A DNA stretch of 64,000 nt from an uncultured virus (IMG/VR IMGVR_UViG_3300010885_088079) (IMGVR_UViG_3300010885_088079), one strand, 5' to 3'. Shown: positions 3,093 through 56,358, counted from the stretch's first letter. Numbers and translations: made by a program. Notes: generated by a model not told the origin, from the letters alone.

Positions 3093-3665
3093 CTAGAACA
3101 TAATATCACCCCCAGTTTCAAAAGATAAGTTGTGGTTCTCTCTAATTTTTTTAAGGCTTTTCTTGATTCTGTTGTATATCGTCACTCTTGTTGTATTGTA
3201 CTTTTTTGAAAGCTCGGCAACACTTCTTCCTGTGAGGTAGTGCTCCATAAGAATCATTCTGTCCTGAACGTCTCTAGGAGAGTCTTGAGAACATTCTGCC
3301 AAAAGAGTAGGAAGCAAATCAGTAGAGACAACATTGTTTGAACTAGGCTGGGGAAGGTTGTTTATATCTTCTTGGTCCATTGAAAAACAACCATGACATC
3401 TCTTCTTTCTTTTCGACCTTCTTACAAAATCTATGGCTTTGTTAAAAAGGTGAGAAGAAAGGTACTTATCAAAGGATGCTTTGGAGGGATTGAATCTTAA
3501 ACGGCAGGAGACCAGCTCTTGTGAAAGATATCCGTAGATTTCAGAGTCTCTAATGCTTCTTACGCGTTCGGAGTTAAACTTGTTCGATATTGCTTCGACC
3601 ATATAAAGGTAGTCTTCAACGTTTATATGGCTCTGTTCGTAACAGGGCTTTGGTTGGCAACTCAT
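3093..3665 (-). CDS. sigma-70 family (region 2 + region 4) RNA polymerase sigma factor-like protein
   Basis: Region 2-like RFNPSKASFDKYL...AIDFVRR; region 4 HTH GRSVAELSKKYNTTRVTIYNRIKKSLKKIR. Confidence 0.75.
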   Translation of the reverse strand: MSCQPKPCYEQSHINVEDYLYMVEAISNKFNSERVRSIRDSEIYGYLSQELVSCRLRFNPSKASFDKYLSSHLFNKAIDFVRRSKRKKRCHGCFSMDQEDINNLPQPSSNNVVSTDLLPTLLAECSQDSPRDVQDRMILMEHYLTGRSVAELSKKYNTTRVTIYNRIKKSLKKIRENHNLSFETGGDIMF

Positions 3666-7847: not shown

Positions 7848-8120
7848 TCAAGACTCTATAGATTCAAAAACGACCGGCTTCCTTCTAGAACCCCATCTTA
7901 TTTCTCTTAGATAGTCTCTCATTGCTCCAATTATTCTGAATTTAGCAAAAGACCTAAACCCATTATTTGGGTTTGATTTAAACTTGTTTGCTGCCTCTAC
8001 CAATCCAAGATAGGCTGCGGCTTGGAGTTCATCATAAGATACTAAATAAAACCTCTTTTTGAAATCAGCAGCCAATAGGTCAGCAAAGTATATATTGTCA
8101 ATAATTAAGTCATTTATCAT
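7848..8120 (-). CDS. short sigma-factor region-2-only protein (FliA/SigB-like region 2)
   Basis: YDELQAAAYLGLVEAANKF...FRSFAKFRIIGAMRDYLRE; ends at 90 aa with no region 4; SD AAGGAG. Confidence 0.75.
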   Translation of the reverse strand: MINDLIIDNIYFADLLAADFKKRFYLVSYDELQAAAYLGLVEAANKFKSNPNNGFRSFAKFRIIGAMRDYLREIRWGSRRKPVVFESIES

Positions 8121-18412: not shown

Positions 18413-18829
18413 TTAAAAATTGTGAAAAACATGAACTTCATTGCTATCAACGAGGATTTCTTCATCGTTTCCTATAACTTCATTAATAGTATTCCCAGAA
18501 GAATCTGCTTCGTTAAAAAGCAACAATTGTTGTTCAGTGGGGTTTGCTTCCCCAATTACATAGTTGGTTTGTCCAACTGTGCAGCTAAATGAAGGGTCAA
18601 ACCCGACAAAGTATTGCGAATTTTGTGGATTAGATGAAATAAATGTCATATTAGAAGTTGAAGAGGCAACAGAAATAGAAAAGTCTTTTTCAAGCGAATT
18701 AAAAAAACTATTAGTTTCTCCTATACAAACAGAGTCCTCTAAGTCGCAATAGCCATTTAAAGCCTGTTTGTATATCAACCTAGCAAAATCAATAAGGCCA
18801 CTTTTAGATACTTTTGCAAAATTTGACAT
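18413..18829 (-). CDS. hypothetical protein
   Basis: 138-aa ORF coupled to the ALDH stop. Confidence 0.6.
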   Translation of the reverse strand: MSNFAKVSKSGLIDFARLIYKQALNGYCDLEDSVCIGETNSFFNSLEKDFSISVASSTSNMTFISSNPQNSQYFVGFDPSFSCTVGQTNYVIGEANPTEQQLLLFNEADSSGNTINEVIGNDEEILVDSNEVHVFHNF

Positions 18830-20307
18830 TATTTTAATCCTTGTGGGAAAGAAAGTTCACCATAATTAACGGTCCAAGAAACCTTATGGACAATGCTGTC
18901 GAACAGTCCAGCAGCAGACGGTTGACCGTTCCCAGACTTTTTAACTCCACCAAAAGGAAGGTGAGACTCTGCTGCTATGCTTCCACCATTCCAGTAGCCC
19001 AAACCAAAATCACAATTGTCCCTGACTCTCTTGGCTTTCTTAAAGTCATTGGTCACCACGCCCAAGGAAAGGCCATACTCAGTGTCGTTATATATTTTTA
19101 TAGCATCCTCAATAGTATCAAAAGGTATTATGGCGACATGAGGACCAAAGACCTCCTGCTTCAAAAAGGCCTTATCTGACCACTCACACTGGTAAACAAA
19201 AGGAGAGAGAAAGTACCCTTTGTCTACGGGTGTCGAATTGTGATAAAGCACGGTGCAGTCTTTATCTTCCAAAACCATTTTGTTGAAGCTTTCAACACGA
19301 AGTTTTTGCTCATTGCTAATTAAAGGCCCAAAAGCGACAGAACAAACGCCCGGGACACTAGCAAAGGGATCTCCAACATGACACCTAGAGACTTCAGCAA
19401 CAAATTTCTGCTTAAACTCTTCAAGTATGCTTCTTTGTATAAGAAGACGACCCGAAGAAACACAACGTTGTCCACTAAGCTTAAAAGCACTGTTTACACA
19501 AGCAGGAATTGCCAAATCTAAATCAGCGTCATCAAAAACCATAACGGCAGACTTGCTGCCCATTTCACAACTACAAGTCTTATGCCAACTTTCTGCACAG
19601 GCTATTCTTATAAGTCTTCCTACCTCAGCACTTCCTGTGAAGCAAATGTGATCAACAAGATCATTTTTAACTATCGACTCACCAACCGATCCGTCGCCAT
19701 GAACAAGGTTAAAAACCCCGGCGGGAAAACCAGCTTCATGAAAAAGTTCAGCGGTTATTTGGCCGACCAAAGGAGTAAGCTCACTAGGCTTAAAAACAAC
19801 GGTATTGCCCTCAAGCAGAGAAGGACCGGCACACCAAAATCCACCAATTGCAAAAGGGAAGTTCCATGGGGCAATTATAGCCACAACCCCCTTAGGCTTC
19901 CTTATAACATTGCAATCTCTTTCTGCTATCTCTGATGGAACTATCTCGCCGTTGCTAATTCTTGCTTTTCCAAAACAGTATTGAGCCATATGCAAAGCTT
20001 CTATTGCTTCTGCTTTGCTCTCGTTGAGCGTCTTACCAGTTTCTAGCGATATCGCTTTTGATACATAATCAATTCTTTTCTCAAGAATATTACATAAGTT
20101 CCAAAAGTACTCAGCACGTTTTAACCTTGAGATTTCTTTCCAGCTTGAGAATGCGGTTTTAGCAACCTGTATTGTTGTACTGACCTCATCCACAGTGGAC
20201 TGCGGAAAATATCCTATTGCTGATTCGTCCGAGGGGTTCAAGCTAGGAAAGTCATTCCTCTGCTCACAGAACTTTCCGTTAATGTAATTAAAACCATTTC
20301 TTAACAT
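18829..20307 (-). CDS. aldehyde dehydrogenase
   Basis: PWNFP, KPSE, FTGS, CEMGSK, GQRC, EVFGP, PFGGVK. Confidence 0.95.
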   Translation of the reverse strand: MLRNGFNYINGKFCEQRNDFPSLNPSDESAIGYFPQSTVDEVSTTIQVAKTAFSSWKEISRLKRAEYFWNLCNILEKRIDYVSKAISLETGKTLNESKAEAIEALHMAQYCFGKARISNGEIVPSEIAERDCNVIRKPKGVVAIIAPWNFPFAIGGFWCAGPSLLEGNTVVFKPSELTPLVGQITAELFHEAGFPAGVFNLVHGDGSVGESIVKNDLVDHICFTGSAEVGRLIRIACAESWHKTCSCEMGSKSAVMVFDDADLDLAIPACVNSAFKLSGQRCVSSGRLLIQRSILEEFKQKFVAEVSRCHVGDPFASVPGVCSVAFGPLISNEQKLRVESFNKMVLEDKDCTVLYHNSTPVDKGYFLSPFVYQCEWSDKAFLKQEVFGPHVAIIPFDTIEDAIKIYNDTEYGLSLGVVTNDFKKAKRVRDNCDFGLGYWNGGSIAAESHLPFGGVKKSGNGQPSAAGLFDSIVHKVSWTVNYGELSFPQGLK

Positions 20308-20340: not shown

Positions 20341-21303
20341 TCAGGAAACAAGGTCTATAAAATATAATTTGTTACTTTTTTCCCCAACAAGTACAGACTT
20401 AAAGACCTTATTTTTTACAAAAAACCTTAAAGCTTCTTTTTGATCTTTATCAGGAATCTTAACGGCACCACAACATGTGGGAACTATAAGTGCAAATACG
20501 TCAAAGATTGGTTTGCCATCAGCTTCTGGTAAGCCTTCTAAACAAGCAATTTTATCTTTTATAACAGGAGGAACATCATACAATATATCTTCTACAGGAC
20601 ATATAAAAGGACAATATTTTAGCTTGCCTTCTACAAAGATCCCGTGTTTATCAAAATAAAAGCCAAGCATTCGTGCTAGAATGACAGAAGCTGTTGTGGA
20701 CTTAATTTGATGAAAACCATAATGAGACTCAGCGGATCTCTTTATTTCATTTATGTCTTTATCAGCTTCTTCTGCTAAAGAATAAAAGCCTAAAGAAAGA
20801 TATGTATCTTTTTTGCTAAGAAGATCAGACACCTTCTGTTCATATAGTAAGCTATTTCTTTCATAATAGTCGAAACACTCAGGATAATCGTGCCAAAACT
20901 CAGAAGAAAAAAGGTAGTCTAGGTTTATCGCCTTATATTTTTTAAGAGACCTCATTTCTCGCCTTTGAGAGGAACTTTTCAGCAACCTGATGTTTGACAT
21001 CTTGTTGAGTAACTTTCCCCTAAAGAAAGAATTTAGTTTTTCTTCAAAAACTCCGGCTGAACTAGAGAAGCCATTTTGATTAGCGTACTTAATTGTTTTA
21101 ACGAATTCAAAACATCTATCTAGGAAAAGACCGTCCTCAGTATAAAACTCTTCGAAAAGAGCATTGAGTTCAGGATGGGTTAAGTCGGCAGCACCAACGA
21201 ATCTTTTAAGACCAAGACCGAAATCGCCCATAATACGATAGACAAGGTCTTCGTCAGACTCTGATATCTCTCTAAGAAGTTTGTACGCAGTAGCTTGGCT
21301 CAT
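20341..21303 (-). CDS. hypothetical protein
   Basis: 320-aa ORF with ATGA overlap to infC. Confidence 0.65.
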   Translation of the reverse strand: MSQATAYKLLREISESDEDLVYRIMGDFGLGLKRFVGAADLTHPELNALFEEFYTEDGLFLDRCFEFVKTIKYANQNGFSSSAGVFEEKLNSFFRGKLLNKMSNIRLLKSSSQRREMRSLKKYKAINLDYLFSSEFWHDYPECFDYYERNSLLYEQKVSDLLSKKDTYLSLGFYSLAEEADKDINEIKRSAESHYGFHQIKSTTASVILARMLGFYFDKHGIFVEGKLKYCPFICPVEDILYDVPPVIKDKIACLEGLPEADGKPIFDVFALIVPTCCGAVKIPDKDQKEALRFFVKNKVFKSVLVGEKSNKLYFIDLVS

Positions 21304-21836
21304 TTCTTAATCTGAACTTTAGGAGAAATAACACAAGTTATACAGTTTCCATCAAGCCTAGGATTTCTTTCGACCAAACCAGCATCTGATAGGCTCTCTA
21401 TAATTTGTTTAATAACAGAAAAACCCTGTTCTTTGTGAGACATCTCACGTTGTCCCTTGAAAACAATATTGAACTGTACTTTAGAGTTGTCCTCTAAAAA
21501 CTTCCTTGCCTGTGATATTTTGACTTCCATATCATGCTTTCCTATAACAGGTCTAAGTCTAAGTTCCTTAAGATTCACCTGAGAGGTTCGTTGTTTTTTC
21601 AACTGCTCTTTCTTTTTTAATTGTTTCTCGTACCTAAACTTGCCATAATCTGTTATTCTACAGACTGAGGTGCCATTGATAGGAGGAGAAACTTCTACCA
21701 AGTCTAGATTGGCGTCCTGCGCCATCTTTAAGGCTTTTTCAAAAGGAAAAACGCCTAGCTGCCTATCTTCTAAAATTACACGAACCTGGCGACTTCTTAT
21801 CTGTCTGTTGACAGGAAGGTCTTCTTCAAAAGACAT
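21300..21836 (-). CDS. infC: translation initiation factor IF-3
   Basis: NRQIR..VRVI, LDLVEV, DYGKFRYE, KELRLRP.I..HD...K...ARKFL; starts with ATG. Confidence 0.95.
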   Translation of the reverse strand: MSFEEDLPVNRQIRSRQVRVILEDRQLGVFPFEKALKMAQDANLDLVEVSPPINGTSVCRITDYGKFRYEKQLKKKEQLKKQRTSQVNLKELRLRPVIGKHDMEVKISQARKFLEDNSKVQFNIVFKGQREMSHKEQGFSVIKQIIESLSDAGLVERNPRLDGNCITCVISPKVQIKK

Positions 21837-21850: not shown

Positions 21851-23398
21851 TCAGACTTGAGATGAAACATCGAGAACAACATTGATAACGGATAAGGACT
21901 TTTTCTTAAGACAGGCGTTAATTGCATTATCAAGCTCTGTCTCATCGTTTACGAGATAACCAACTCCTCCAATTGTATCACATATTTTTTCGTAATTCCA
22001 ACTTTTAATTGAATTTTTTTTCTGATTGATAACAAAAATTATTGGATTTAAATTATTTTGTACAAGGGTGCTAATTTCCATAGAAGAAGTTTGAAAAGAG
22101 TCTTCGCTAACAACCACTAAGGGACGAATGCCCGCATTAAGCAGTTGGACGCTCATTGCACCGGGCAAAGCCAAGCCAGTGCTGCAGTAAAAGGCAGAGC
22201 TTATAAAACGATGATGTGGCACAACAAGCTCAGCGGCATCAAGCATGTACTCACCGATATCAGCTAACACAACAAAGTTTTCGTCTAATATACTATTCAA
22301 TTTTTCAAAAAATCTTTTTAAACTTATCCCTTGTCCTTCTATGGGAACAAACTTTGTTCTATTGCTCTTAGTCGAAGAAACAAATTCTTTTTTTCCTAAA
22401 TCAATTCTAAAAAAGTCTTTGCAAAAGTCAATGAACCTAATTCCACAATAAATGTGGTTTTTAACTCTTAAGTTTTCTATAGAGCAAAAAATAGTATTGC
22501 TGTTGTCAAACTTGGGCGTAACAAACCCAAAGCCAGTATCAGTTAGCATTTCTCCAAATATCAGCAAGCAGTCTGATGACTCTACGCGATTCTTAACCTC
22601 TAAATTACGGGTTTGTTCGCCAAAATAAACACCAGAAAATAATGGATGGGTTTCACAAATAGAAGACTTACTCAAAAAGGTTGTAACTATAGGGATATTA
22701 TGCTTCTCTGCAAACTTGATTAAAGAGTCCTCAAGATTAAACCTTGTGATTTGAACTCCCATAATTATAACGGGATTTTTAGAAGATTTTAGGTAGCTAG
22801 AGACATCTTCTATAGCTTCTTTTAAACTGGCTCCATCGCTTTTATCGTTATTAGGGGTGCCTTGCGTATAAACGTCATACTTTATAGGTTGTGAAGCAAC
22901 ATCCCTTGGAATTTCGATATAAACAGGTTGCTTTGTTTCTTTTAAAATATTGAGAGCGTTATCAATCTTCCAGCCAGCTGTTGTTGCATTATCTAAAACG
23001 ACACTATGTGCGGTAATGTGGTCGAACATCTCTTTTTGAGAACTAAAGCTTTCAACCAAATGATTAGATAGAAAGTCTTTATTCCTGTCCTTCATACCTG
23101 GGGAACCGCCTATGATAACAACAGGCGACCTTTCGGCGTAAGCACCGGCAACCGAATTGCACAGCTTTAACGCACCAACGTTGTAAGTAGCACAAACGCA
23201 GCCTATTCCATTAAATCTAGCGTACGCGTTAGCCGCAAAGCCCGCGTGGCTTTCATCAGTGTTACTGATGAACTTGATTCTGTCACTTTGAGAGATTACA
23301 TCTAAAAAATTGTTTATGTAAGGGCCTTGTACACCAAAAATGTGCTTAACGCCTGCGTTTCCCAATCTTTCGCATAAAAATTCAGATACCAATGGCAT
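21851..23398 (-). CDS. alpha-keto-acid (pyruvate/indolepyruvate) decarboxylase family protein with degenerate ThDP motif
   Basis: L..AGVKHIFG, E..AGFAANAYAR, AGAYAE.SPV; GDG motif appears as SEDSFQ. Confidence 0.85.
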   Translation of the reverse strand: MPLVSEFLCERLGNAGVKHIFGVQGPYINNFLDVISQSDRIKFISNTDESHAGFAANAYARFNGIGCVCATYNVGALKLCNSVAGAYAERSPVVIIGGSPGMKDRNKDFLSNHLVESFSSQKEMFDHITAHSVVLDNATTAGWKIDNALNILKETKQPVYIEIPRDVASQPIKYDVYTQGTPNNDKSDGASLKEAIEDVSSYLKSSKNPVIIMGVQITRFNLEDSLIKFAEKHNIPIVTTFLSKSSICETHPLFSGVYFGEQTRNLEVKNRVESSDCLLIFGEMLTDTGFGFVTPKFDNSNTIFCSIENLRVKNHIYCGIRFIDFCKDFFRIDLGKKEFVSSTKSNRTKFVPIEGQGISLKRFFEKLNSILDENFVVLADIGEYMLDAAELVVPHHRFISSAFYCSTGLALPGAMSVQLLNAGIRPLVVVSEDSFQTSSMEISTLVQNNLNPIIFVINQKKNSIKSWNYEKICDTIGGVGYLVNDETELDNAINACLKKKSLSVINVVLDVSSQV

Positions 23399-23400
23399 AT

Positions 23401-24078
23401 TCAAGACTCGCTGGTAAAAGTATCCGTTATCTTGATCAAGAAGCCTTCTTTGTCAGCAGGAAAACGCCTGATCCACTGATCAGGAGCAGAAACCTGTGTC
23501 ATGAGTTTAAACTCAAGGTAATAGCAGCCAGGAGCGTCTGTCTCAGGGAGCGACCACTCATGAATAAAATAACTTTCCTGTAGAACATTCTGTGTTGTTG
23601 TTCCATCTATTTCTAAAATGTCTTCGTAAACCATTTCTACCTTTGAAGGTCTATTCATAAACTTAACAATTTTAATTGGATTTCCTCTGCTCCAATCCTG
23701 TGCTGTGGTGCCGTCTTGCCCCCTATCAACATAAACTAATTTATTGTTCTCGTCAAAGGAAGTAACGAGAACTTTTTCTGAGCCTCTTGTTCTTTCTATT
23801 ATTAGCATGTCGCCAACTATTATTTGGTTAAATCCTATGTTGTCGGCTAAAGAGAGGGCAGTATCTGTGCTTGTTATGTTCGTTTTCAGTTTGGACTTTG
23901 CCCACATGGTAGACTCTAAAATTAAGTCCGTAAGGTCCATAGGCCCATTGCAGTCCTCCATAAGAACCCTGTAGTCGGGTTTGGTGTCATATCTTCTGAT
24001 TAAGAAGTCTGGGCAAATCCCGGAAGGACAGCCACATTGGTCAGAACAGGCACTATTGTTGTTGTTTGAACAGCTCAT
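23401..24078 (-). CDS. probable virion structural protein
   Basis: CATAAATA late-type motif directly before ATG 24078; V.RGQDGTTA motif typical of phage structural proteins. Confidence 0.55.
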   Translation of the reverse strand: MSCSNNNNSACSDQCGCPSGICPDFLIRRYDTKPDYRVLMEDCNGPMDLTDLILESTMWAKSKLKTNITSTDTALSLADNIGFNQIIVGDMLIIERTRGSEKVLVTSFDENNKLVYVDRGQDGTTAQDWSRGNPIKIVKFMNRPSKVEMVYEDILEIDGTTTQNVLQESYFIHEWSLPETDAPGCYYLEFKLMTQVSAPDQWIRRFPADKEGFLIKITDTFTSES

Positions 24079-26846: not shown

Positions 26847-27320
26847 TTAAGAGAGATAAATTTCTTTACCTATGTCCTTGATGAAGATACCAAAAGAATG
26901 GTCTATTTCGTGCTGGAAAACTATAGAATAGAGTCCAACTTCAGTTGAATTAAAGTCCTCGACATCAACTCCATTCAAACGCTGGCCTTTTACAATAACG
27001 CTAGAGTGTCTTTGAACCTCAAACCTTCTTATGGAACCAGATTCATCTAGCAAAGAAAGACAGCCCTCAATAGAATGAACCTTATCTCCTGCTGGTTCGT
27101 ATCTACAGTTCAAATAGTACTCGTAAGATTCATTTCTATTCAAAACAAAAAGGTCCAAGGGAAGCCCAACCTGAACCGCTGATAGACCTATACCATTATT
27201 GTCTCTGCAGACCTTTTCCATTTGGTTACAGATTTTAAAAATTTCTATTGGCCCCATGCTCTCCAAAGGATTTTTTGTAGAGGGGGGTATATCTTTGAGT
27301 TCAACTAGCCTGTATTGCAT
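26847..27320 (-). CDS. def: peptide deformylase
   Basis: GIGLSAVQ, EGCLS, QHEIDH. Confidence 0.95.
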   Translation of the reverse strand: MQYRLVELKDIPPSTKNPLESMGPIEIFKICNQMEKVCRDNNGIGLSAVQVGLPLDLFVLNRNESYEYYLNCRYEPAGDKVHSIEGCLSLLDESGSIRRFEVQRHSSVIVKGQRLNGVDVEDFNSTEVGLYSIVFQHEIDHSFGIFIKDIGKEIYLS

Positions 27321-27359: not shown

Positions 27360-27626
27360 CTATTTTGAAGTTAAATTCTTTACGATTAATTCGACCCTTG
27401 GCTTAAGCCAATTATTCAGGGTTTCAGAGTCGGCCTTAGCCTCACTGGGAACTTTGAGAATTATCGTATCGTAAACAGTGCCATCGTTTGATTCAGGAGG
27501 CAGACTCTTTTCTACAATGTCACGAATAAGCTTAGAAACAGAAACATCCTTCCTCTTGGCCTCTTTCTTGACCCTCTCTTGAAAATCAGTGTCTATTGAT
27601 AAACTTAAAATCTTATTAGAACTCAT
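27360..27626 (-). CDS. ribbon-helix-helix DNA-binding protein
   Basis: ILSLSID...VKKEAKRKDVSVSKLIRDIV. Confidence 0.7.
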   Translation of the reverse strand: MSSNKILSLSIDTDFQERVKKEAKRKDVSVSKLIRDIVEKSLPPESNDGTVYDTIILKVPSEAKADSETLNNWLKPRVELIVKNLTSK

Positions 27627-27871
27627 TATTCACCGTATCTTTCTGGAAAGTTTTCTCTTAACTTAGACTTTAGTATTTGATTTTGCTGTTCCTTCTTTTT
27701 TCTTCTTCTTTTTTCACCTGGACTCTCATAGAACTCTCTCTTCTTATATTCTTGAAGAATCCCAGCGTCTACAACAGCCTTTTTAAATATAGAAAACATC
27801 CTTTTGAACGCGTACTCTCTATCTTGAGAACTAGCATTTGCTGGGAGATCTTTCTGGTAAACTTTAACCAT
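27626..27871 (-). CDS. rpsU: ribosomal protein bS21
   Basis: FKK.V..AGILQEYKKREFYE.P.EKRRRK. Confidence 0.9.
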   Translation of the reverse strand: MVKVYQKDLPANASSQDREYAFKRMFSIFKKAVVDAGILQEYKKREFYESPGEKRRRKKKEQQNQILKSKLRENFPERYGE

Positions 27872-33609: not shown

Positions 33610-36600
33610 CTAACTACTAAGAACAACAATCCTAATATCGTCCTTCTTGTCAGGGTACTTTTTGACGCCCTTCCATCTAAATCCGCTACTGTTCGATTCA
33701 AGTGTAAAAGTAGCGAATCCATTAGAAGGCGGCTGAAGCCTTATTCTAAGTAGATTGTTTGGAGAAAGCTCCTCGCTCCATCTTTCCCAATCGTCCAACC
33801 AAACTATTATCTTGTTCGATTGCCCTGTGACGTCTTCGGCCTGAATTTGGTAATATTCTGTGCCTTTTTTACTCTTTGTTTTCGTAGCCTTAAGTACCTT
33901 AATCTCTACTGCCCCCACAGCAACGTCTTCTGATGCTTTTAAATTGTTAAAGGTGAGATTGCCCCTATAGTCTGGGCTGTTCTCCAATGGATGTATCCAG
34001 CTAAATCCATAGTACTTATTTTCACAAAAGTCTAAGTTGCTAAGTTCTTCTTCAAGGTTTCCATCAATATCGTGTTTTGATGGATCAAAAGTTGCAAGCG
34101 TTGGACTGTCCTTTGATATGAGCTTATACCTTTCAATGGACTTGTTTCTCTTGTTCCAAAGCGATCTAAAAGCAACTAACCGATTCCAGTTTCTTCTGAC
34201 TTTAACCTTTTTATAGTACTTAACAGTCTCTTTCTCTATGGTCAAACCGCAATCCAAAGTTACTGGGGTGTTTACGACTTTTGCATAAGCTCCTTCATCA
34301 TCTTTATCACACTCAACTCTTTTCTCTATAAATTGGTCGCCGTCTGCATTGTACTTGATCCAATAAGGATCTTCAAAAGGAGAGTCTCCTTTTATATCAC
34401 TAAGCCTTATGCTCTCCTCAGGAAAAAGCTCCTTAAACTCTTCTTCGTACTTTTCTAAAGCAGCAATGTACCTTTTCTTTTTGTCTTCGTTTCTTTTTGA
34501 AAAAAGTTTATAACACTCTGAGAACTTCCACAAAGTGACCGGGTCGCTTTCATTAAAACACCTAAGGCCAATTAAAGGTTTGAGAACGTTGGCATCAGTC
34601 CCAAATCTTTCTAGAAAATCTTCAAACCCACTGAACGGTTGTAGGTCTACTATTCTCTTCGCGGGAGCTTCTCCTACTCCTTTAACGTTGGATAGTCCAA
34701 AGTATATGTCTTCACCTTGAAGATCAAAATTGACCTTTGATCGATTAACTTCTATAGGAAGCACGTTTACATCATGGAGTTTAGCCTCCATTTTGTATTC
34801 TTTTATTTTGTCGCTTAGTGTTTCACAACTAAGTATGCTGGTATAAAACTCGTGGGGATAATGAGACTTTAGATAAAGAAGATATGCAGAGACATAGCTA
34901 TAAGCAACGGCATGGCTATTACTTGTTACTACTCCATTTGGCAAAATAAAGTTGTGTGTTAGGCAGGAAACTTCAAGATCGTACATTTGTCGTTCGCCCA
35001 CGGGCACAACTCGTACAATTTTCCTAGACACCAAACCCCGGGTATTGGAGATTGGAGCATGTTCTGAAAGGTGGTCCACCATTCTAACGTCATTCTTCCT
35101 GTGCTGCTGTGGAAGCAAGACATCTCTAGCCTGGGGAACTTCTTTTTGCACTTCGACATCCAACCATCTTCTCTTCTCTTCGGCATAATTTCCTCCAAAT
35201 TCTTTTTCACAAAGAACAGAAGTCTTATTCAATATAATTTCATGGAGAGGCTTCTGTCCCTCTTGTGTGAGAAACTTATGGTCTAAAGTGCAAACTATTT
35301 TATAGCCATCATCAAATTCTACTTTATAACCTTGTAAGATCCCATGATAGTGAAGATTGACCACTTCCGTTTCTACCGTGTTGCCTAATTCATCGATACA
35401 ATAAACTATGTCCCCTTTTTGAAAATCACAAATTTTCTTAAGTCCTTTAGGCGTAGATATATATGTATCTTGGTGCATAGATTTATTGAAACCATATTCG
35501 CTAAAAGCCTCAATAGCTCGCCAAAGATCTTCAACCTCTTTTTCGTTAACGCCTAAATTCTTTTGGCCGTTACGAACAAACATCTCTTTGTACTTTATGA
35601 AGCTATCTATCTTCTTCTTGCTTATTGCTTTTCGAACAAGCTCGCAATCCTTAAGAGGAATCTCTCCAACCACGTTAAGGATTTTCATGACTTGTTCTTG
35701 ATAAATCATAACCCCATAAGTGTCGCCTAATATGGGTTCTATCAAAGAATGTAGTGAATAATCTTCCCGACCCCTTTTTCTTTCGATGTATCGTTCCTGC
35801 ATCTTCATGTTAAGAGGACCGGGACGATTCAAACTCGTATAAGCAACTAAATCTTCAAATCTGTCCACACCACCATTCTGGCACATGCCTCTTACAGTTT
35901 CACTATCAAACTGAAAGATGCCTTTGAGATCACCGGAGTTTGCCATCTCTAAAGCAACAGAGTCGTTTCGCCAGGCTTTAACGTCTGACCAGTCTGCCTG
36001 TCCCTCTAATGCACAAATACCCTTTAGGTTATGTCTGTTCTTAACTAACTCGCAGCATTTAGCTATCTGTAGCAGATTTGATATAACTAGAAGATCAAAT
36101 TTAACAAGGCCGACCGGCTGAAGGTCTTGGCCGTGCAAGCCCTCAACCCAAGCAGACGCTTGAGGGTTATCTTTTCTTTTTACAAGTGGAACTAGTTCGG
36201 GCAGTGGAGAGTTAGATATTATCAACCCTCCAGCATGAACACCCATTCCTCTATTTCTATTCAGAAGTTTTTTCGCGGACTCAGCTATCTCAGGATATCT
36301 GTCACAATACTTTTTAAGATCAGGATTCAGCTTCATGGCTGAGTCCCAAGTCATAGCCTTGCCTTCATCGTCTTTGGCATCTAAGTTCTTGGTTAAGGCT
36401 AAAATTTCATCACGGCTTTCACCATGAACACGAGCCATGTCTATTAAAGCGGACTTAATCCCGAAGGTAGTATAATTTCCTATGTTGCAAACGTACTCTT
36501 CACCGAAAGTAGAAGGAGCCCAAGTATTTTTTAAATACTCTCTCACAACCGGAATAAAATCTACGTCGATATCGGGATAATCCCCATACTCACATTTAGG

Positions 36601-36843
36601 CTCTTTGTTGATATCAACGCTAGAAACGATACCCAGAAGCCAACAAGTCAGTAAGTTATTCTCATTACTTGGATAAAAAACTTTTCTTTTGTGTAGATCT
36701 AAGAAATAGTTGGACCTATTCTTTGCCTTGATCTCCTCAAGCTCCCACCTAAGCCTTTTATAAAAATTAGGATCATTATCTAGCTTCTTGTTTTTAAGAG
36801 AAGAAACACACAATGCTTCAAGGTCTTCATCTTCTTTTGACAT
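33610..36843 (-). CDS. dnaE: DNA polymerase III alpha, C-terminal part (catalytic palm, fingers, HhH, OB-like), intein-containing
   Basis: PDIDVDF, HAGG, VKFDLL, GIFQF, RPGP, YQEQ, YGFNK|SHAVAY; no PHP domain. Confidence 0.95.
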   Translation of the reverse strand: MSKEDEDLEALCVSSLKNKKLDNDPNFYKRLRWELEEIKAKNRSNYFLDLHKRKVFYPSNENNLLTCWLLGIVSSVDINKEPKCEYGDYPDIDVDFIPVVREYLKNTWAPSTFGEEYVCNIGNYTTFGIKSALIDMARVHGESRDEILALTKNLDAKDDEGKAMTWDSAMKLNPDLKKYCDRYPEIAESAKKLLNRNRGMGVHAGGLIISNSPLPELVPLVKRKDNPQASAWVEGLHGQDLQPVGLVKFDLLVISNLLQIAKCCELVKNRHNLKGICALEGQADWSDVKAWRNDSVALEMANSGDLKGIFQFDSETVRGMCQNGGVDRFEDLVAYTSLNRPGPLNMKMQERYIERKRGREDYSLHSLIEPILGDTYGVMIYQEQVMKILNVVGEIPLKDCELVRKAISKKKIDSFIKYKEMFVRNGQKNLGVNEKEVEDLWRAIEAFSEYGFNKSMHQDTYISTPKGLKKICDFQKGDIVYCIDELGNTVETEVVNLHYHGILQGYKVEFDDGYKIVCTLDHKFLTQEGQKPLHEIILNKTSVLCEKEFGGNYAEEKRRWLDVEVQKEVPQARDVLLPQQHRKNDVRMVDHLSEHAPISNTRGLVSRKIVRVVPVGERQMYDLEVSCLTHNFILPNGVVTSNSHAVAYSYVSAYLLYLKSHYPHEFYTSILSCETLSDKIKEYKMEAKLHDVNVLPIEVNRSKVNFDLQGEDIYFGLSNVKGVGEAPAKRIVDLQPFSGFEDFLERFGTDANVLKPLIGLRCFNESDPVTLWKFSECYKLFSKRNEDKKKRYIAALEKYEEEFKELFPEESIRLSDIKGDSPFEDPYWIKYNADGDQFIEKRVECDKDDEGAYAKVVNTPVTLDCGLTIEKETVKYYKKVKVRRNWNRLVAFRSLWNKRNKSIERYKLISKDSPTLATFDPSKHDIDGNLEEELSNLDFCENKYYGFSWIHPLENSPDYRGNLTFNNLKASEDVAVGAVEIKVLKATKTKSKKGTEYYQIQAEDVTGQSNKIIVWLDDWERWSEELSPNNLLRIRLQPPSNGFATFTLESNSSGFRWKGVKKYPDKKDDIRIVVLSS
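34918..35481 (-). mobile_element. 188-aa mini-intein in dnaE (between YGFNK and SHAVAY)
   Basis: Starts SMHQDTYI; block B TLDHKFLT; block F MYDLEV..HNFI; ends NGVVTSN followed by Ser+1; no in-frame endonuclease. Confidence 0.9.
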
Positions 36844-37170: not shown

Positions 37171-38190
37171 ATGCCCATAAAATTAAATAGAATATTTGCC
37201 CTCCAAAACTTGACCATATCAAGTCCTTTTGGTGGCTGCAAGTTCAAAGATGAAGCATTCAAAAACTCACCATCGTTCAAAATAGTGCCAATTGAAGAAA
37301 CAGTAAATTTTAAAGCACTATCTTCGAACAATTTTGAAGAATATGAAAAGTACATCAAAGAAGCTGAACAGTATGGACGAAGTAAAGAAAAGTTTCTTCA
37401 ACTAGCATCGGACATCAAAAACCTAGAAAGAGTAAAGATAAGTGTGTTTCACTCTTTAGAATTAGATAAATTTGTAATAATAGATGGACTTCATAGAATC
37501 TGCGTGTGTATAAACAATAGGTTGGTAACCGATCAGTTGAAGGAAAATAATTTTGATTTGTATTTTGATCGTCTTTCAATAGACTTTGTAGAAAAAGAAA
37601 TAAAAAAAACTTGTGGAAAGTCCGACCAAACTAATCCGTGGTTCAACAGAACAGAAAATGGGTATCATTCTTTTAACATTGGAAACATAAACCTTAAAGG
37701 ACAAAGAACACCAAAGAAAAGAATAGAAAGTCTAAAAAAATATTACAACTTCGAAGGCAAGACAGTGCTAGATCTAGGATGCAACAATGGAGGAATGCTA
37801 TTTCACTTGACTGAGATCAAAAGAGGTGTTGGTTTAGAATTTGACAAAAGATGTATAGATTGTGCAAACCAACTTAAAAAGATATTTCAATTTACGTACA
37901 ATCTTGAATTTCAAAAAAAAGACTTGAATCTGCCGCTTGACATAAAAGAAGAGTTCGATGTAGCTTTCCTGTTTTCTTTAGGATCATGGATTAAAAACTG
38001 GCGTGGCTTGTATCTTAACGTCTCTAGGATTGCAAAAACAATATTTTTAGAAACAAACAATGATAAAGAGGGATACGAACAATTAAAATATATGAATGAT
38101 TTAGGATTCAAAATCAACATGGTGTCAGACAATTCCAAAGATGATAACACAGGAAATTTTGGAAGAAAAACGTATATGTTAAATAGATAA
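37171..38190 (+). CDS. ParB/Srx-like domain fused to class I SAM methyltransferase
   Basis: IIDGLHR; VLDLGCNNG. Confidence 0.75.
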   Translation: MPIKLNRIFALQNLTISSPFGGCKFKDEAFKNSPSFKIVPIEETVNFKALSSNNFEEYEKYIKEAEQYGRSKEKFLQLASDIKNLERVKISVFHSLELDKFVIIDGLHRICVCINNRLVTDQLKENNFDLYFDRLSIDFVEKEIKKTCGKSDQTNPWFNRTENGYHSFNIGNINLKGQRTPKKRIESLKKYYNFEGKTVLDLGCNNGGMLFHLTEIKRGVGLEFDKRCIDCANQLKKIFQFTYNLEFQKKDLNLPLDIKEEFDVAFLFSLGSWIKNWRGLYLNVSRIAKTIFLETNNDKEGYEQLKYMNDLGFKINMVSDNSKDDNTGNFGRKTYMLNR

Positions 38191-38193
38191 ACT

Positions 38194-38322
38194 ATGAAAA
38201 CATTTAATCAATGGCTTTTAGAAAACCAATTAAATCAAAATCATTTTGATCAATCGTTTTACACAATTAATGGAAGTAACTACTCAATAACAGTTAATCA
38301 GGATCTGGGATGTCGCTTATAA
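38194..38322 (+). CDS. 42-aa ORF with capsid-targeting-like N-terminus (not in the ORF track)
   Basis: MKTFNQWLLENQ... directly after ATAGATAA. Confidence 0.5.
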   Translation: MKTFNQWLLENQLNQNHFDQSFYTINGSNYSITVNQDLGCRL

Positions 38323-38353
38323 CTTTTCCTAAACAACTGTCTAAACATTTAAC

Positions 38354-38390
38354 AAAAAAAGGGAGGACCACTTTTTAGTAGTCCTCCCTT
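38354..38390 (-). terminator. intrinsic terminator of tmRNA
   Basis: GGGAGGAC/GTCCTCCC stem followed by T7 on the minus strand. Confidence 0.85.
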
Positions 38391-38393
38391 TAG

Positions 38394-38742
38394 TGGAGTC
38401 GAGGGGAGTCGAACCCCTGTCCGTAAGCGTACTTGATATGGCTTCTACACGTTTGTTTCATTGTTCATAAGACTTCATTGACCACAATGAACAAAGGTCT
38501 TTGAGTCTTTCGGCCTATTTTCTCATACCAAACTAAGCCGACCAGTTTGATACCAGCAGGATTTTGCGACGAATCTTTGGACGCTTCCCGCGTGGCTTCC
38601 TAGATTCGTGGATACCTTCTCAGGCAGCCATTGCGTAAGAAACTTCGCCAGTTAAGGCTTTAGTCGATTTTTACGAGGCCATCGACCAACCTCGACGTGC
38701 CACCAATACCTCCTATCACTACGTCGATACCTTTACGACCCC
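38394..38742 (-). ncRNA. ssrA: tmRNA (one-piece); tag (A)GEVSYAMAA at 38649-38620
   Basis: 5' GGGGTCG pairs with 3' CGACTCC-A with a G3:U wobble; T-arm AGGGGTTCGACTCCCCT; tag ORF after TAACT ending in AA-stop; TGCTATAAT upstream. Confidence 0.95.
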
Positions 38743-38824
38743 ATTAATAGCATTATAGCACACAAATTAGGGCTCGTAAAATTGAATTTAGCACCATATA
38801 TATCACAAAAGGAGAAAAATCCCC

Positions 38825-43746: not shown

Positions 43747-45153
43747 TTATTGATCGTTAAAAACCTCTTTTGGGGGAAATGGGTCCAAGTTCTTAAACTC
43801 TAAGCAAATAGACCTACCGCCTCTAGCCTCACTCATAAATCTACTAAACAGTAGACCTTCTTTCACAGGGTCAACCGTAGTTATGCCCAAGCAGTAACAA
43901 GTTAAAGCACCCGCTGCAGAGCCTCTAGCAGGCCCTACAGCCTGACTTCCATCTCCCCAGCCCAAAAGACTCCTACAAACTCTTCTGGCTTCGTCGGTCA
44001 TTTTCTTTTGTATAAGGAAGTAGCTAGAAAAACCCTTTCTAGTTATTAAGGAGTATTCTTCTTTAATCCTGCCTAGGTATTCTTTGGTTCTAGGAAGGTT
44101 CTTTTCAGCAAAACCCTTCATTATCTCTTCTTTTAGTATATCATCAGCATCAGGAAGCACAGGCAACTTAAGGCTACGGTCTAATTGAACACCTTTTGCT
44201 TTGTTGCATATGGTAACGGTGTTCTTTTTTGCTTGTTGAAAGAGTTCGTATGGAATCGTGTCGGAATATTCTTCTTGCCACTTTTTATTTAGCTCTTCTT
44301 CGCTCTTCATCCAAAGGTTAGCATCCTGAAGCTCGAAGAAATCTTGCATATTGTCTTCAGCCATAGCTCGCTGAATGTCTTGAACGGTCCTATTTGTTTG
44401 AACCATCAACATAAGCCTCTGGAACTTGCTGTCTTCTTGATTGCAGTAATGACAGTCGTTGGTTAAAATCAAAGGAAGCTTATACTTTTCATGGGCCTTA
44501 ATTATAAAAGCGTCATAGGGTTTTTGTTTCTTAAAGTCTAAGAGCATTATCTCTAAGAAATAATGACTCCTACCAAACATTTCAATATAACGCTCTATAA
44601 CAGCATTAGCGGCGTCTTCACCGTGTCTGTCAAAAGCCCTGCCTACTTCACTGTTATAACAACAGCTAGTAAAGAACAGACCTTCTTTGTGCTTTAAAAG
44701 CTGATCGTAATTGACTCTAGGCTTTCTATAAAAGCCTTTAGTCCATCCCCAGCTGGTTAAGCGAACAAGGTTTTTATAACCAACGTCGCTGTAAGCTATT
44801 GCTAAAAGGTGAGCACTAGCCTTGATGTCCTTTTTTTCTTCTTCGTTTAAATCTGCAGTGAACTTCTGCATATCCTCCAAACAGCTAGACTCTGGCTGGA
44901 GCGGGTTCACATAGAGTTCTGCTGCGAATATATAGGAAAGGGTGTCTTTTCCCTTTTTTTCATTTATTTTTTCGCAAGCACGAATTTGTCTAGGGACCGC
45001 TCCCAGCATACCGTGATCACTCACGGTAAGAAATTTCTGATTTATTTGAGTTGCTCTTTGGGCAAATTCCTCTACCATGCCGAAGCCATCGAGTAATGAA
45101 AAATCCGTATGGAGATGCAAATGTTCAAAGCCAACAATTTCGCAGTTTTTCAT
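43747..45153 (-). CDS. dnaE: DNA polymerase III alpha, N-terminal part (PHP domain to RGS motif)
   Basis: HLHLHTDFSLLDG, SDHG, FYRKPR, TNDCH, GPARGSAAG...LGIT.VDP...LLFSRF; stops before PDID. Confidence 0.95.
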   Translation of the reverse strand: MKNCEIVGFEHLHLHTDFSLLDGFGMVEEFAQRATQINQKFLTVSDHGMLGAVPRQIRACEKINEKKGKDTLSYIFAAELYVNPLQPESSCLEDMQKFTADLNEEEKKDIKASAHLLAIAYSDVGYKNLVRLTSWGWTKGFYRKPRVNYDQLLKHKEGLFFTSCCYNSEVGRAFDRHGEDAANAVIERYIEMFGRSHYFLEIMLLDFKKQKPYDAFIIKAHEKYKLPLILTNDCHYCNQEDSKFQRLMLMVQTNRTVQDIQRAMAEDNMQDFFELQDANLWMKSEEELNKKWQEEYSDTIPYELFQQAKKNTVTICNKAKGVQLDRSLKLPVLPDADDILKEEIMKGFAEKNLPRTKEYLGRIKEEYSLITRKGFSSYFLIQKKMTDEARRVCRSLLGWGDGSQAVGPARGSAAGALTCYCLGITTVDPVKEGLLFSRFMSEARGGRSICLEFKNLDPFPPKEVFNDQ

Positions 45154-53552: not shown

Positions 53553-55634
53553 TCAGTCCTCCGACTCGGCTAAGTCCCCCCTAGCAAATATACCGCCAAC
53601 AAAGTCCAAAACGTCTGTAGCAGAACGCTCGTTATAGCCATACTGCTTTATGAGTCTTGTTTTTATTGCGTCGATCTTTTCTTGGATGTCTTTGTCTACA
53701 ACTGTGGCACCGCTAACATTTAGTGCGGACAACTTGATGGTATCCTTTACATCCTCGAAAAGTTTGGCCTCAAGAGCCTTCTTAAGCTTAGGATTTGAAT
53801 CCCATCTAAACTGCTTGTTCTTATGAGCTAGATCACCGATAAAAGCAGCAATCTGGCGTCTAAAGTCTTCAGCACCAGTTTCTGGTATCTGAATCTTTTC
53901 TTCTATCTGCCTCATAAGCCTTTCATCCGGCTTGCGGTCTTGACCCGTGATCGGATCCTTGATCTTAGACTTATTAATATAAGCCATGACATTGTCGATA
54001 TAATTAGTACAAAGTCTAATAATTGCATCTTCGTCTCCGACCAGTGCCTTTTGCACCTCAGCTTTAAGTATTTCTGTTAGCTTCTTGAGAGCTAGATCTA
54101 CACAAGAAATATATCTACCTACTTGCTCCTTGTTTGTTAAAAGGGAGCAATTGTCTAGGCCCTCTTTCAACTCGTTAAGAACCATGAACATATTGACATA
54201 TTCATGATTGTTAGCCAAGCAATTAGATATTTTGTCCTGTAGGTATCTGACAGACACACCGCCAGACATACCCTCTTCAGGATACTTATCTCTCATTTCT
54301 TTTACAGAGTCTTCTGTCCAACCAGGCAGTAGTCTTCCATCATACAATTCTGCTTTTTCTACTAGTGTGATCTTTCCGTCTTTATCGTCATGAAGTCTAG
54401 TGAGAACAGAGAAGAGAGCAGCGATTTCCAAAGTATGTGGAGCTATATGTTGCTTGACCTTTTCAGAACCATAATCTTTTTCAAGAATCTTTAGTTCTTC
54501 TGACCAACGTAAAGTATATGGAACGTCTATCTTTGTGGTTCTGTCCCTAAAAGCTTCCATATACTGATTGCTCTTTAGCTTTTGAAACTCTGGATCGTTC
54601 GTATGAGCGATAATAGCCTCATCGATTGATACCTGAGAGAACTTCTTTGGCTTAATTGATTGTTCTTGGCTTGCACCAAGAAGATCATATAAGAACGCTG
54701 TGTCGAGCTTCAAAACCTCGATAAATTCAATCAGGCCTCTATTCCCAGCACAAAATTCACCATCAAAAGAAAATGCTCTTGGATCAGAATCCGAACCAAA
54801 GTTACCAATCTGACGGAAGTTTATATCTCCAGTTAGCTCAGTCGAATCCTGATTCTTCTCGTCCTTTGGTTGGAAGGTTGCTATTCCGCAACGGTCTGAT
54901 TCGCTGTAAACCTTCCTTACAACTCTGATGTGATTTTCTAAAACTTTTTCTAAATCTCCATCATACTTCTTAAGTAGTGCATTCATGAACTTCTTGCACA
55001 ATGGGTCAAGCTCGTCATTGCACTTGAGAGTGTAAGTATCAGACCTTTTATCATCTGATAGGGACTCTTCATATATTTCATTAATTTTCTTTACAAATGG
55101 AAGTCTCACTTCCAGTGGTAATAGCTTGAGAGGCTGCTCGTGCATGGGGCATTCGCAGGTTGTATCATTATAAATACCATCTGCACCTGTGGGTAGATTT
55201 ACCCATTTAAAGGAATACCAAGCACCGTTATCGGTCTTAGAGAACCTTTCAAGACCTCTCTTTATTAGTCTGCATATTGTTGACTTAGAGCTTCCCACTG
55301 GGCCGTGAAGCAAAAGGATTCTTCGCTCTGTGCCGTACCCACCAGCGGCTCCCTTGATAAACTTTACTAGAGCATCCTTCATAGGAGTCAAGCCGACAAT
55401 TGGTAGATCACAGTCGTCAAAAAAGTTATAGTGAACATAGGTCTTTCTATATTCTTCGACAGTCTTGCTGCCCTTCTCCATTATCATTTCATAAATATTC
55501 TGCCATGAGTTTCTAAGCAGAGAAGGCTTTTGCTTGACCAAGTCCAAATATTCACTGAAACTCATTTCAGTGTTTAATGTTTGAAACTGTTCTTTGTTGA
55601 AACTGTTGATGATTTCTTTTAGCGTGTCAGTCAT
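53553..55634 (-). CDS. prkA: PrkA/YeaG family AAA+ serine kinase
   Basis: RILLLHGPVGSSKS, CPMHE.PL, F.P.DEKNQD..EL.G, SDPRAF, NRG..EF.E; ATG 55634 after GGAGG. Confidence 0.95.
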   Translation of the reverse strand: MTDTLKEIINSFNKEQFQTLNTEMSFSEYLDLVKQKPSLLRNSWQNIYEMIMEKGSKTVEEYRKTYVHYNFFDDCDLPIVGLTPMKDALVKFIKGAAGGYGTERRILLLHGPVGSSKSTICRLIKRGLERFSKTDNGAWYSFKWVNLPTGADGIYNDTTCECPMHEQPLKLLPLEVRLPFVKKINEIYEESLSDDKRSDTYTLKCNDELDPLCKKFMNALLKKYDGDLEKVLENHIRVVRKVYSESDRCGIATFQPKDEKNQDSTELTGDINFRQIGNFGSDSDPRAFSFDGEFCAGNRGLIEFIEVLKLDTAFLYDLLGASQEQSIKPKKFSQVSIDEAIIAHTNDPEFQKLKSNQYMEAFRDRTTKIDVPYTLRWSEELKILEKDYGSEKVKQHIAPHTLEIAALFSVLTRLHDDKDGKITLVEKAELYDGRLLPGWTEDSVKEMRDKYPEEGMSGGVSVRYLQDKISNCLANNHEYVNMFMVLNELKEGLDNCSLLTNKEQVGRYISCVDLALKKLTEILKAEVQKALVGDEDAIIRLCTNYIDNVMAYINKSKIKDPITGQDRKPDERLMRQIEEKIQIPETGAEDFRRQIAAFIGDLAHKNKQFRWDSNPKLKKALEAKLFEDVKDTIKLSALNVSGATVVDKDIQEKIDAIKTRLIKQYGYNERSATDVLDFVGGIFARGDLAESED

Positions 55635-55655
55635 ATTGTCCTCCGGTACCAACTA

Positions 55656-55700: not shown

Positions 55701-56036
55701 TTAATTTCCGTCCCAGGATTCGTTTTTGTTTAAATCATTAATTTCATTATAGGGGGCATTGGGCGATTTTGAAGCGATCTCTGCTTTTTTACGCTGCTCG
55801 ATTACAGATGGCAAGTTATGCTTAAACCTGTAGTCATGCCCTGAATTCTCACTATTCCACCTGTCTGTGCCAACAGGGTTGGAAAAATTGAAGTTGCAAG
55901 CGGAAGCTAATTTTTCTTTTTTATCTGAGCCGCATTTTGGGCAAATGACAGAGGGATACCCTCCTGTTTCATCGTAGCTCGTAAATTCATCAAAAATAAT
56001 ATTGCAACTAAGGCACTGAAAGTCATAGATTGGAAT
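55701..56036 (-). CDS. FmdB-family zinc-ribbon protein, ATT start (not in the ORF track)
   Basis: (M)PIYDFQCLSC...ICPKCGS, 111 aa; AGGTGAT SD; in-frame TGA two codons upstream of ATT. Confidence 0.85.
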   Translation of the reverse strand: MPIYDFQCLSCNIIFDEFTSYDETGGYPSVICPKCGSDKKEKLASACNFNFSNPVGTDRWNSENSGHDYRFKHNLPSVIEQRKKAEIASKSPNAPYNEINDLNKNESWDGN

Positions 56037-56043
56037 AAATCAC

Positions 56044-56358
56044 CTATTTTTCTTCTTGTTCTAACTCCAACAAAAGATTTAGTTTTTTGTAAACCTTTTC
56101 TATATGATTTAATCTAGTATTTAAAGAATAAAATTTCCACAAGAAGGAACCTTTTGAAAGATCTATGGCATTGAGTAGCAATTTATACTTGAGTTTCTGT
56201 GATGTCTCTCTAAATTTGGCCTCGTAAAGAACCATTTCTTCTTCCAATATTCCTTTATACTCCTCAGGTGTAATTAAATACTCTTGAGAGTCGGAGTTGA
56301 GAAACCTTTCTACTTCCTCTCTATCTGGATCTTCGTCATCAAAATCAAACCTTCTCAT
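56044..56358 (-). CDS. hypothetical protein
   Basis: SD AGGAGG; ATGA overlap. Confidence 0.7.
   Translation of the reverse strand: MRRFDFDDEDPDREEVERFLNSDSQEYLITPEEYKGILEEEMVLYEAKFRETSQKLKYKLLLNAIDLSKGSFLWKFYSLNTRLNHIEKVYKKLNLLLELEQEEK

Follow-up and report, generated by a model that had tools for sequence, protein, structure and literature searches.

The question raised by this locus is whether a virus that supplies its own translation initiation factor 3 (IF3) uses it to govern viral genes beginning at the rare start codon ATT. The 64,000-nucleotide stretch of DNA analysed here (the window), from the uncultured virus IMGVR_UViG_3300010885_088079, carries an IF3 gene, infC (21300..21836, minus strand), together with a yeaH-like and an FmdB-like gene that begin at ATT. 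Extra IF3 specifically depresses the translation of AUU-led mRNAs, by half in extracts from rich medium and by more than 60% in those from minimal medium, while AUG- and UUG-led mRNAs are little affected; IF3 autoregulation acts through the AUU/AUC starts of infC (PMC5499595). A first reading made from the sequence alone (the sequence-only reading) had proposed that the phage IF3 has escaped this feedback and could switch AUU genes of phage and host off, or on if its fidelity is relaxed. In the analysis described below, the ATT starts are instead read as selected attenuation with only a generic connection to IF3, an interpretation of sequence comparisons which we hold with roughly even confidence.

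Two phage genes begin at ATT

The yeaH (53317) and FmdB-like (56036) genes begin at ATT, as the sequence-only reading had held. ATT is regarded as the true start of both because no in-frame canonical start lies upstream, because the codon aligns with ATG, GTG or TTG in relatives, and because the family profiles align from the N-terminus. Genome-wide, these are the only two among approximately 163 predicted genes that need a non-canonical start.

The yeaH/yhbH-like gene (DUF444; 52097..53317, minus strand, start codon 53317-53315) encodes 406 amino acids, and its frame is open for 107 codons above the first ATG, GTG or TTG (52996), with a coding potential of 0.30-0.34 per codon in this leader versus 0.26 for the gene. 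Codon by codon, the ATT falls on the start of the gene in 39 relatives and in the phage LR756511.1. Across 41 yeaH loci, the aligned start is ATG in 18, ATG one codon earlier in 16, GTG in 3, TTG in 2 and ATT in 2, the last being this phage and the record G002 (97% protein identity), where no in-frame canonical start occurs within the 19 open codons upstream. The protein matches PF04285 with 207 bits (cut-off 27) over the full length of DUF444, including the N-terminal region, and its residues 3-334 align with positions 3-327 of NCBIfam NF003711; the score of 313 bits falls below the equivalog cut-off of 388, making it a family member rather than an equivalog. The Shine-Dalgarno (SD) sequence of this ATT, TAAGGAGGTG (53321..53330, minus strand, 10 nt), stands at an aligned spacing of 6 nt and is the longest among 75 anti-SD matches of at least 7 nt in the 122.8-kb genome G000; the window matches G000:C1:5009-69008 in reverse complement, apart from 12 mismatches. 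A 72-amino-acid open reading frame (ORF) between prkA and yeaH (53333..53551, minus strand) ends in a TAG 15 nt upstream of the ATT. This TAG (53333-53335) is in frame with yeaH, and a read-through product fusing the two was considered but rejected as a coincidence, because in G002 the ATT and SD are retained although the ORF before them terminates in a different frame.

The FmdB-family zinc-ribbon gene (55701..56036, minus strand, start codon 56036-56034) encodes 111 amino acids and lies directly upstream of prkA. Its ATT is preceded in frame by TGA-TTT, with the TGA two codons above, and its SD, AGGTGAT (56040..56046, minus strand), is found at an aligned spacing of 6 nt and overlaps the TAG stop (56046-56044) of an upstream 104-amino-acid ORF. 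The distance of 7 nt from that stop to the ATT corresponds to a translational-coupling geometry. Profile TIGR02605 aligns residues 2-52 with its positions 2-49 at 41.5 bits (cut-off 31.3), which places the MPxYxF/Y-xCxxC...CxxC N-terminal ribbon above the family cut-off, while the Pfam profile Zn_ribbon_8 (PF09723) scores 34.2 bits, slightly under its cut-off of 34.4. The first in-frame canonical codon is situated 74 codons downstream, past the CxxC zinc-ribbon motif. In 37 FmdB-like loci the aligned start is ATG (26), ATT (6), TTG (4) or GTG (1), and none of the six ATT-led genes has an in-frame canonical start upstream. Standard gene callers would truncate yeaH, with the loss of 107 residues, and miss the FmdB-like gene altogether.

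Both genes belong to an FmdB-like/PrkA/small ORF/YeaH/SpoVR module (50497-56036, minus strand) present in 38 of 38 related records searched. Between the two ATT genes lies prkA (53553..55652, minus strand; AAA_PrkA and PrkA C-terminal domains in Pfam), and a spoVR-like gene (50497..52095, minus strand; Pfam) comes last.

The ATT starts are conserved in genes under purifying selection

Both ATT codons are kept in independent contigs, namely G002 and sequencing run X2 of another study, whose pieces 52898-53442 and 55105-56290 cover the two codons without a single difference. Between the yeaH genes of G002 and of G001, an IMG/VR record with whose first 64 kb the window is co-linear, the rate of non-synonymous substitution (dN) is 0.026 and that of synonymous substitution (dS) 2.2 (dN/dS 0.011), and the ATT and TAAGGAGGTG are identical despite saturated synonymous sites. 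For FmdB-like pairs inside the ATT clade, dN/dS ranges from 0.03 to 0.16, likewise with saturated dS. The ATT codons are thus selectively kept, or at least not selected against, and the genes are not in decay. Rare start codons in phages can thus be stably selected and need not be errors.

In a YeaH tree of 38 rows, calculated with the start codon excluded, the records with an ATT-led FmdB-like gene G001, G002, G003, G004 and G012 form one clade (Shimodaira-Hasegawa-like approximate likelihood ratio support, SH-aLRT, 94). The ATT of G019 is a second origin in this gene, because G019 stands apart, beside its sister G009, which has ATG. The start codon shifts often, with 5 changes on the tree in yeaH and as many in the FmdB-like gene; inside the ATT subclade the yeaH starts read ATT, ATT, ATG, TTG and TTG.

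Two further ATT-led genes were verified by homology in G004, a 381-kb relative. Its GATase-like gene (L101:5769-6908, plus strand) starts ATT-TGT-GGA (CGIAG...), with CGIAG aligned to the GlmS and AsnB profile starts and residue 1 on position 1 of the GlmS model, and the ATT is aligned to a canonical start, ATG or GTG, in four homologues, one of them this phage's own copy in G001, which has ATG. The second gene encodes a 180-amino-acid 'PTENERKY' protein (L099:3116-3655, minus strand) with no Pfam or NCBIfam match, and its ATT is aligned to the ATG of two homologues. Four different genes have therefore taken on ATT within one subclade.

The phage IF3 lacks the bacterial feedback start and has an altered start-codon-inspection motif

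Profile, structure-homologue and start-codon evidence identifies infC as the gene of a two-domain IF3 of 178 amino acids with an ATG start. The protein matches the Pfam families IF3_N (PF05198) with 88.7 bits (cut-off 26.9) and IF3_C (PF00707) with 92.1 bits (cut-off 34.8), as well as the NCBIfam infC equivalog TIGR00168 with 158 bits (cut-off 60), and can be aligned over its whole length with bacterial IF3s of solved structure (best Protein Data Bank match E = 9.8e-38, residues 5-174). In the AlphaFold2 model (mean predicted local distance difference test score, pLDDT, 86.9) a long helix, 64-87, joins the two domains, and the N- and C-terminal IF3 domains with a Lys-rich linker are all present.

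The sequence-only reading that infC itself starts with ATG was borne out. A leader of 23 open codons stands before the ATG; it overlaps the last part of the upstream gene, is scored as non-coding (-0.40 per codon) and contains only ATC, ATC and CTG as near-cognates, none of them with an SD. On these grounds an upstream ATT or other near-cognate start was rejected. Because the gene begins at ATG, the phage infC is free of feedback through a near-cognate start, again as proposed. Bacterial infC lies in the operon infC-rpmI-rplT, and neither this context nor a near-cognate start on the IF3 gene itself, as in an infC-type autoregulatory unit, was found for the phage gene. An ATG stands at the expected N-terminus in 11 of 12 IF3 genes of related records, with G016 ambiguous, and the annotated IF3 starts in three cultured jumbo phages are GTG, GTG and ATG. 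The absence of a bacterial-type near-cognate start seems, from these sequences, to be usual for phage IF3 genes. In the IF3 start region of LR756511.1 (L002, approximately 2925-2932), AGGAG is followed at 7 nt by an in-frame ATT, two codons before an ATG that is 13 nt from the same AGGAG, and either codon could be the true start.

The residues of the N-terminal domain that contact the initiator tRNA, and the equivalent of Y75, are retained: E. coli R25, Q33, R66 and Y75 correspond to R19, Q26, R60 and Y69, which are invariant or nearly so in the homologue alignment. Mutation of these E. coli residues relaxes discrimination against AUU (PMC9723500; this paper and PMC2268962, PMC4447247, PMC5472188, PMC7162821, PMC7797042 and PMC11775629 are cited from excerpts).

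The conserved 129-RFRGR-133 motif of the C-terminal domain, on the other hand, is not intact. In the phage protein V125-F-K-G-Q129-R130 corresponds to E. coli R129-F-R-G-R133 with one inserted residue, Q129, between the equivalents of G132 and R133 (pattern F[KRH]G[QKH]RE). The insertion occurs in all 36 of the closest IF3 homologues (51-90% identity, all metagenomic) and in 0 of the 84 remaining hits, and is absent from E. coli IF3 and from the two further bacterial IF3s of solved structure in the alignment. Of the 12 IF3s encoded by relatives that share the module, 8 carry the insertion, 2 read FKGRE and 2 show other variants. With fold and family scores that are still those of IF3, the phage protein is a variant member of the family. 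In the region of the start codon, RFRGR touches positions +2, +3 and +4, and initiation at codons other than AUG is favoured by R131P, by the mitochondrial KKGK and by the R131 variants of mycoplasmas (PMC11775629). Since the clade's IF3 is altered in this start-codon-inspection motif, the relaxed-fidelity branch of the sequence-only reading stays under consideration below.

The two subclade IF3s (G001 and G004) have a short acidic N-terminus, unlike the other 10 of 12, in which 11-24 extra residues, of basic character in most cases, precede the core; in both subclade proteins the inserted motif residue is Gln. The peculiarity in N-terminus and Gln is a single phylogenetic event and as such proves nothing.

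ATT starts do not follow IF3 across relatives

The distribution of ATT starts was assessed by a scan of twelve records for an SD match of at least 5 nt at an aligned spacing of 4-9 nt ahead of any codon that stands at least 15 codons above the first canonical one; the stretch between them had to have coding potential and be free of overlap with another gene. The scan detects only ATT starts at least 15 codons above a canonical codon. It gave 2 ATT hits in G000, 2 in G002, 1 in G012, 3 in G004 and 1 in G001, where the FmdB-like gene fell under a filter although its sequence is identical. In four relatives with IF3 (G006, G015, G028 and G033; 855 predicted genes) there were 0 hits, and the same was true of three in which no IF3 was found (G010, G034 and G035; 899 predicted genes). 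The only other hits were a spurious antisense-strand ATA in G004 and one ATC candidate in G028 (L175-L183, forward index 35331), which has AGGAG at 6 nt, stands 87 codons above the canonical codon and leads a hydrophobic N-terminus, and which is unverified by homology. A crude tally of codons behind SD motifs was discarded as too noisy, since internal SD-like sites dominate it.

Among 38 records sharing the module, IF3 was detected in 12; of the 14 records with a length of at least 100 kb, 10 have it. Most of the others are short fragments, and the absence of IF3 is not demonstrable for any relative, as all but one of the records are fragments. Both ATT-bearing records large enough to judge (G001 and G004) carry IF3. 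No co-variation of ATT-start genes with phage IF3 was observed. IF3 is a clade-wide trait, whereas ATT starts are a trait of one subclade and G019, and neither the presence of IF3 nor the motif insertion is sufficient for ATT starts. The comparison of ATT counts with and without infC, which the sequence-only reading had offered as a check on its start-codon circuit, revealed no association; co-occurrence thus gives the circuit no support, nor does it refute it. The enrichment of 4 ATT origins in approximately 921 subclade genes versus 0 in 1754 others is suggestive, but against AT-rich relatives only (4 in approximately 921 versus 0 in 463, p approximately 0.2) it is not significant.

Selected attenuation as the preferred explanation

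The preferred explanation treats the two features separately. Translated from an ordinary ATG, the phage IF3 would be expressed without the limit imposed by a near-cognate start, as an unregulated takeover factor. Separately, a few genes of one subclade would have swapped ATG for ATT and retained it under selection. The ATT starts lie 6-7 nt (aligned) behind a strong SD and, in this phage, also 7 and 15 nt past a preceding stop; at such sites AUU would give low initiation reliant on the SD and on coupling, and thereby set a low output of the proteins. The output of the ATT-led genes should then be the most IF3-sensitive in the genome. IF3 overexpression is known to reduce re-initiation after an upstream ORF markedly (PMC2268962), and in principle the output of the ATT genes would fall as phage IF3 rises, since no steps respond more strongly to the dose of IF3 than initiation at AUU and re-initiation. 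Accumulating phage IF3 would accordingly lower the ATT-led genes, plus any host infC with a near-cognate start, with the opposite effect if the altered RFRGR loop makes the phage IF3 tolerant of AUU. We infer both the level and the direction of any such effect from general IF3 biochemistry and not from a dedicated circuit.

Three points weigh against this explanation. A start other than AUG need not imply low expression, and infC itself is abundant (PMC5499595). ATT is confined to one subclade, for which attenuation alone offers no explanation, as relatives obtain weak starts by TTG or GTG. Finally, judging from the alignment, the clade's IF3 differs from bacterial IF3 exactly in RFRGR, so an E. 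coli-like behaviour towards AUU may not be assumed.

A phage initiator tRNA able to read AUU was also considered and seems less likely, as only tRNA-Asn, tRNA-Pro and tRNA-Thr occur in G000/G001, which are incomplete fragments, and a tRNA(CAT) of G004 is not initiator-like, positions 1 and 72 being paired and the anticodon stem rich in A/T. An SD match of at least 4 nt precedes only 66 of 164 predicted first canonical starts in G000, yet a few SDs are very long. bS21 helps to hide the anti-SD in Bacteroidetes ribosomes (PMC7797042), and given the bS21 of this phage, SD-dependent translation might itself be modulated.

Alternative explanations

A dedicated repression circuit, in which feedback-free phage IF3 accumulates, acts as a timer by silencing the phage's ATT-led genes, also silences a host infC with a near-cognate start, and replaces host IF3, appears unlikely, though it is far from negligible. 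It would draw on the ATG start of the phage infC, on the AUU-specific repression by IF3 and the autoregulation of infC through AUU/AUC (PMC5499595), on the ATA start of Flavobacterium johnsoniae infC (PMC7797042) and on the conserved R19, Q26, R60 and Y69, mutation of whose E. coli equivalents raises AUU initiation approximately 5-fold (PMC9723500). The IF3 control of sigR, with its GTC start, provides a precedent (PMC5472188), and IF3 is present in both informative ATT-bearing records. IF3 and ATT do not co-vary, however: the four IF3-bearing relatives without a single ATT start in 855 scanned genes use ATG, GTG or TTG for yeaH and the FmdB-like gene.

A further alternative is an effect of the host lineage or near-neutral drift, in which the host translation apparatus and AT mutation pressure shape the start codons and the phage IF3 is uninvolved. 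ATT use follows phylogeny and not IF3 presence, the subclade is AT-rich (34-38% GC), and the relatives span 33-56% GC, which points to different hosts. The ATT codons and their SDs nevertheless persist through saturated synonymous divergence and so are not neutral passengers, and the AT-rich relatives G028 (32.6% GC) and G015 show no ATT. Taken together, we consider this explanation quite unlikely.

The most far-reaching possibility is that a huge-phage lineage reprogrammes start-codon selection, with a feedback-free IF3 bearing the clade-specific RFRGR insertion and with ATT starts, backed by SDs, fixed in several unrelated genes; this IF3 would permit or time a private class of AUU genes, repress a host infC with a near-cognate start and replace host IF3. 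It strikes us as improbable.

A permissive IF3, whose altered codon-inspection loop tolerates AUU so that ATT genes would be translated efficiently in infected cells alone and ATT starts could build up in the lineage, is to be considered distinctly improbable. The restriction of the insertion to the closest homologues (36 of 36, against 0 of 84 remaining hits and none of three solved bacterial IF3s including that of E. coli) speaks in its favour, as do the role of RFRGR in inspecting the start codon and the relaxed non-AUG selection of the R131P, KKGK and R131 variants (PMC11775629), the gain of ATT by four different genes in the subclade, and the fact that the two subclade IF3s are the only 2 of 12 with a short acidic N-terminus. 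But the insertion is also present in G006, G015, G028 and G033, all with 0 ATT starts, the fidelity residues of the N-terminal domain are intact, and the enrichment over AT-rich relatives falls short of significance as described above. Moreover, ATT is used in only 2 of approximately 163 and 3 of approximately 540 genes, and no ATA, ATC or CTG start was verified, contrary to a general relaxation.

That the ATT codons are sequencing errors or mark start-less pseudogenes is suggested by their rarity and nothing further, and can practically be dismissed in view of their recurrence in independent assemblies and runs, the frames intact over 406 and 111 codons and the strong purifying selection.

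Relation to known systems

The phage genes share with bacterial infC autoregulation (E. coli AUU/AUC; F. johnsoniae ATA) the protein family and the IF3-discriminated codon class AUU. They differ in that the phage IF3 gene has ATG and no self-feedback, that AUU stands on unrelated phage genes, and that the infC-rpmI-rplT context is missing. In the Streptomyces sigR gene (GTC; PMC5472188) and Enterococcus faecalis ebpA (ATT; PMC4447247), a rare start acts as an attenuator and an IF3-sensitive control point, likewise a feature of the present genes under the preferred explanation; those are cellular genes under the cell's own IF3, whereas here the virus supplies a second one. The RFRGR variants described previously (E. 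coli R131P, mitochondrial KKGK, mycoplasma R131P/F/Y; PMC11775629) change the same start-codon-contact loop, but in the phage protein a single residue is added after Gly and the Arg/Lys residues are retained.

Huge phages have been reported to encode IF1, IF3, S21, peptide deformylase and tRNAs (PMC7162821), and the translation genes seen here belong to the same set (the class of IF1, IF3, S21, peptide deformylase, transfer-messenger RNA (tmRNA) and tRNAs). The excerpted passages of that report make no mention of start codons, and the ATT starts and the RFRGR insertion are added by the present analysis. The closest phage relative, LR756511.1 (595 kb), is a huge-phage record of this type and shares 47.6% identity in IF3 and 54.7% in YeaH.

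A literature search outside subscription papers found no paper tying phage IF3 to ATT/AUU starts; in the literature searched, phage initiation factors are catalogued, with no demonstrated function assigned to one. Phage-encoded IF3, ATT starts and the IF3 sensitivity of ATT starts are already known. What appears to be new relative to the searched literature is the selected, recurrent use of ATT as a start codon by a subclade of huge phages, an insertion particular to the clade within the start-codon-inspection motif of IF3, and the co-presence of the two in the same genomes. Four homology-verified ATT-led genes with strong SDs and an IF3 with a single-residue insertion offer natural substrates and a natural factor for a possible viral retuning of start-codon fidelity.

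The parent phage and other features of the window

The window is part of a huge phage genome, because relatives with the same gene module reach 381 (G004), 511 (G016) and 595 kb (LR756511.1). CheckV completeness is approximately 25-26% for the G000/G001 records, while G016 has terminal repeats and is rated 100% complete. One end of the G000 contig, beyond the window, begins with GGT/GGC triplet repeats and the other terminates in tandem 18-base units, and the assembly probably breaks in repeats. The GC content is 38%, and the sequencing runs that hold the window sequence are labelled as freshwater metagenomes. A megablast search with 6 kb against cultured and deposited phages returned no match. 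The nearest bacterial IF3s (approximately 45% identity) gave no usable host signal, their sources being spread over several phyla.

Pfam annotation of 85 ORFs and of five genes around IF3 identified a split DnaE, PhoH, sigma-factor pieces, DnaJ and GroES-like proteins, the PrkA/YeaH/SpoVR module and the translation genes IF3, bS21 and peptide deformylase. The bS21 homologue (27626..27871, minus strand), part of the translation toolkit, and the peptide deformylase homologue (26847..27320, minus strand) are each matched by Pfam and NCBIfam profiles. A tmRNA gene (38391..38742, minus strand; Rfam RF00023, 131 bits, gathering score 47) was found full-length in the seemingly gene-free gap 38190-38825, where ARAGORN reported no tmRNA. 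ARAGORN and Rfam identified a tRNA-Asn and a tRNA-Pro, and tRNA-Thr is also among the G000/G001 tRNAs.

The infC gene has a thiamine diphosphate (ThDP)-dependent enzyme upstream and a 320-amino-acid protein without a Pfam family downstream. An aldehyde dehydrogenase (18829-20307, minus strand; 419 bits) lies beyond the latter ORF and the ThDP-dependent enzyme (21851-23404, minus strand) on the other side of IF3, and both may be auxiliary metabolic genes.

The alpha subunit of DNA polymerase III is split, with the PHP domain and the N-terminal part in ORF 43747-45153 (minus strand) and the remainder approximately 7 kb away at 33610-36843 (minus strand), where an intein-like insertion occupies residues 474-641. 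Plus-strand genes, the tRNA-Asn and the tmRNA separate the two pieces. A TnpB/Cas12f-like ORF (45510-46958, minus strand) is located directly upstream of the first piece, and the 357-nt gap behind it (45154-45509) could contain a candidate guide RNA. Finally, the small ORFs 3093-3665 and 7848-8120 (both minus strand) show weak matches to sigma-70 region 4 and region 2, respectively, and may represent a split or divergent phage sigma factor.

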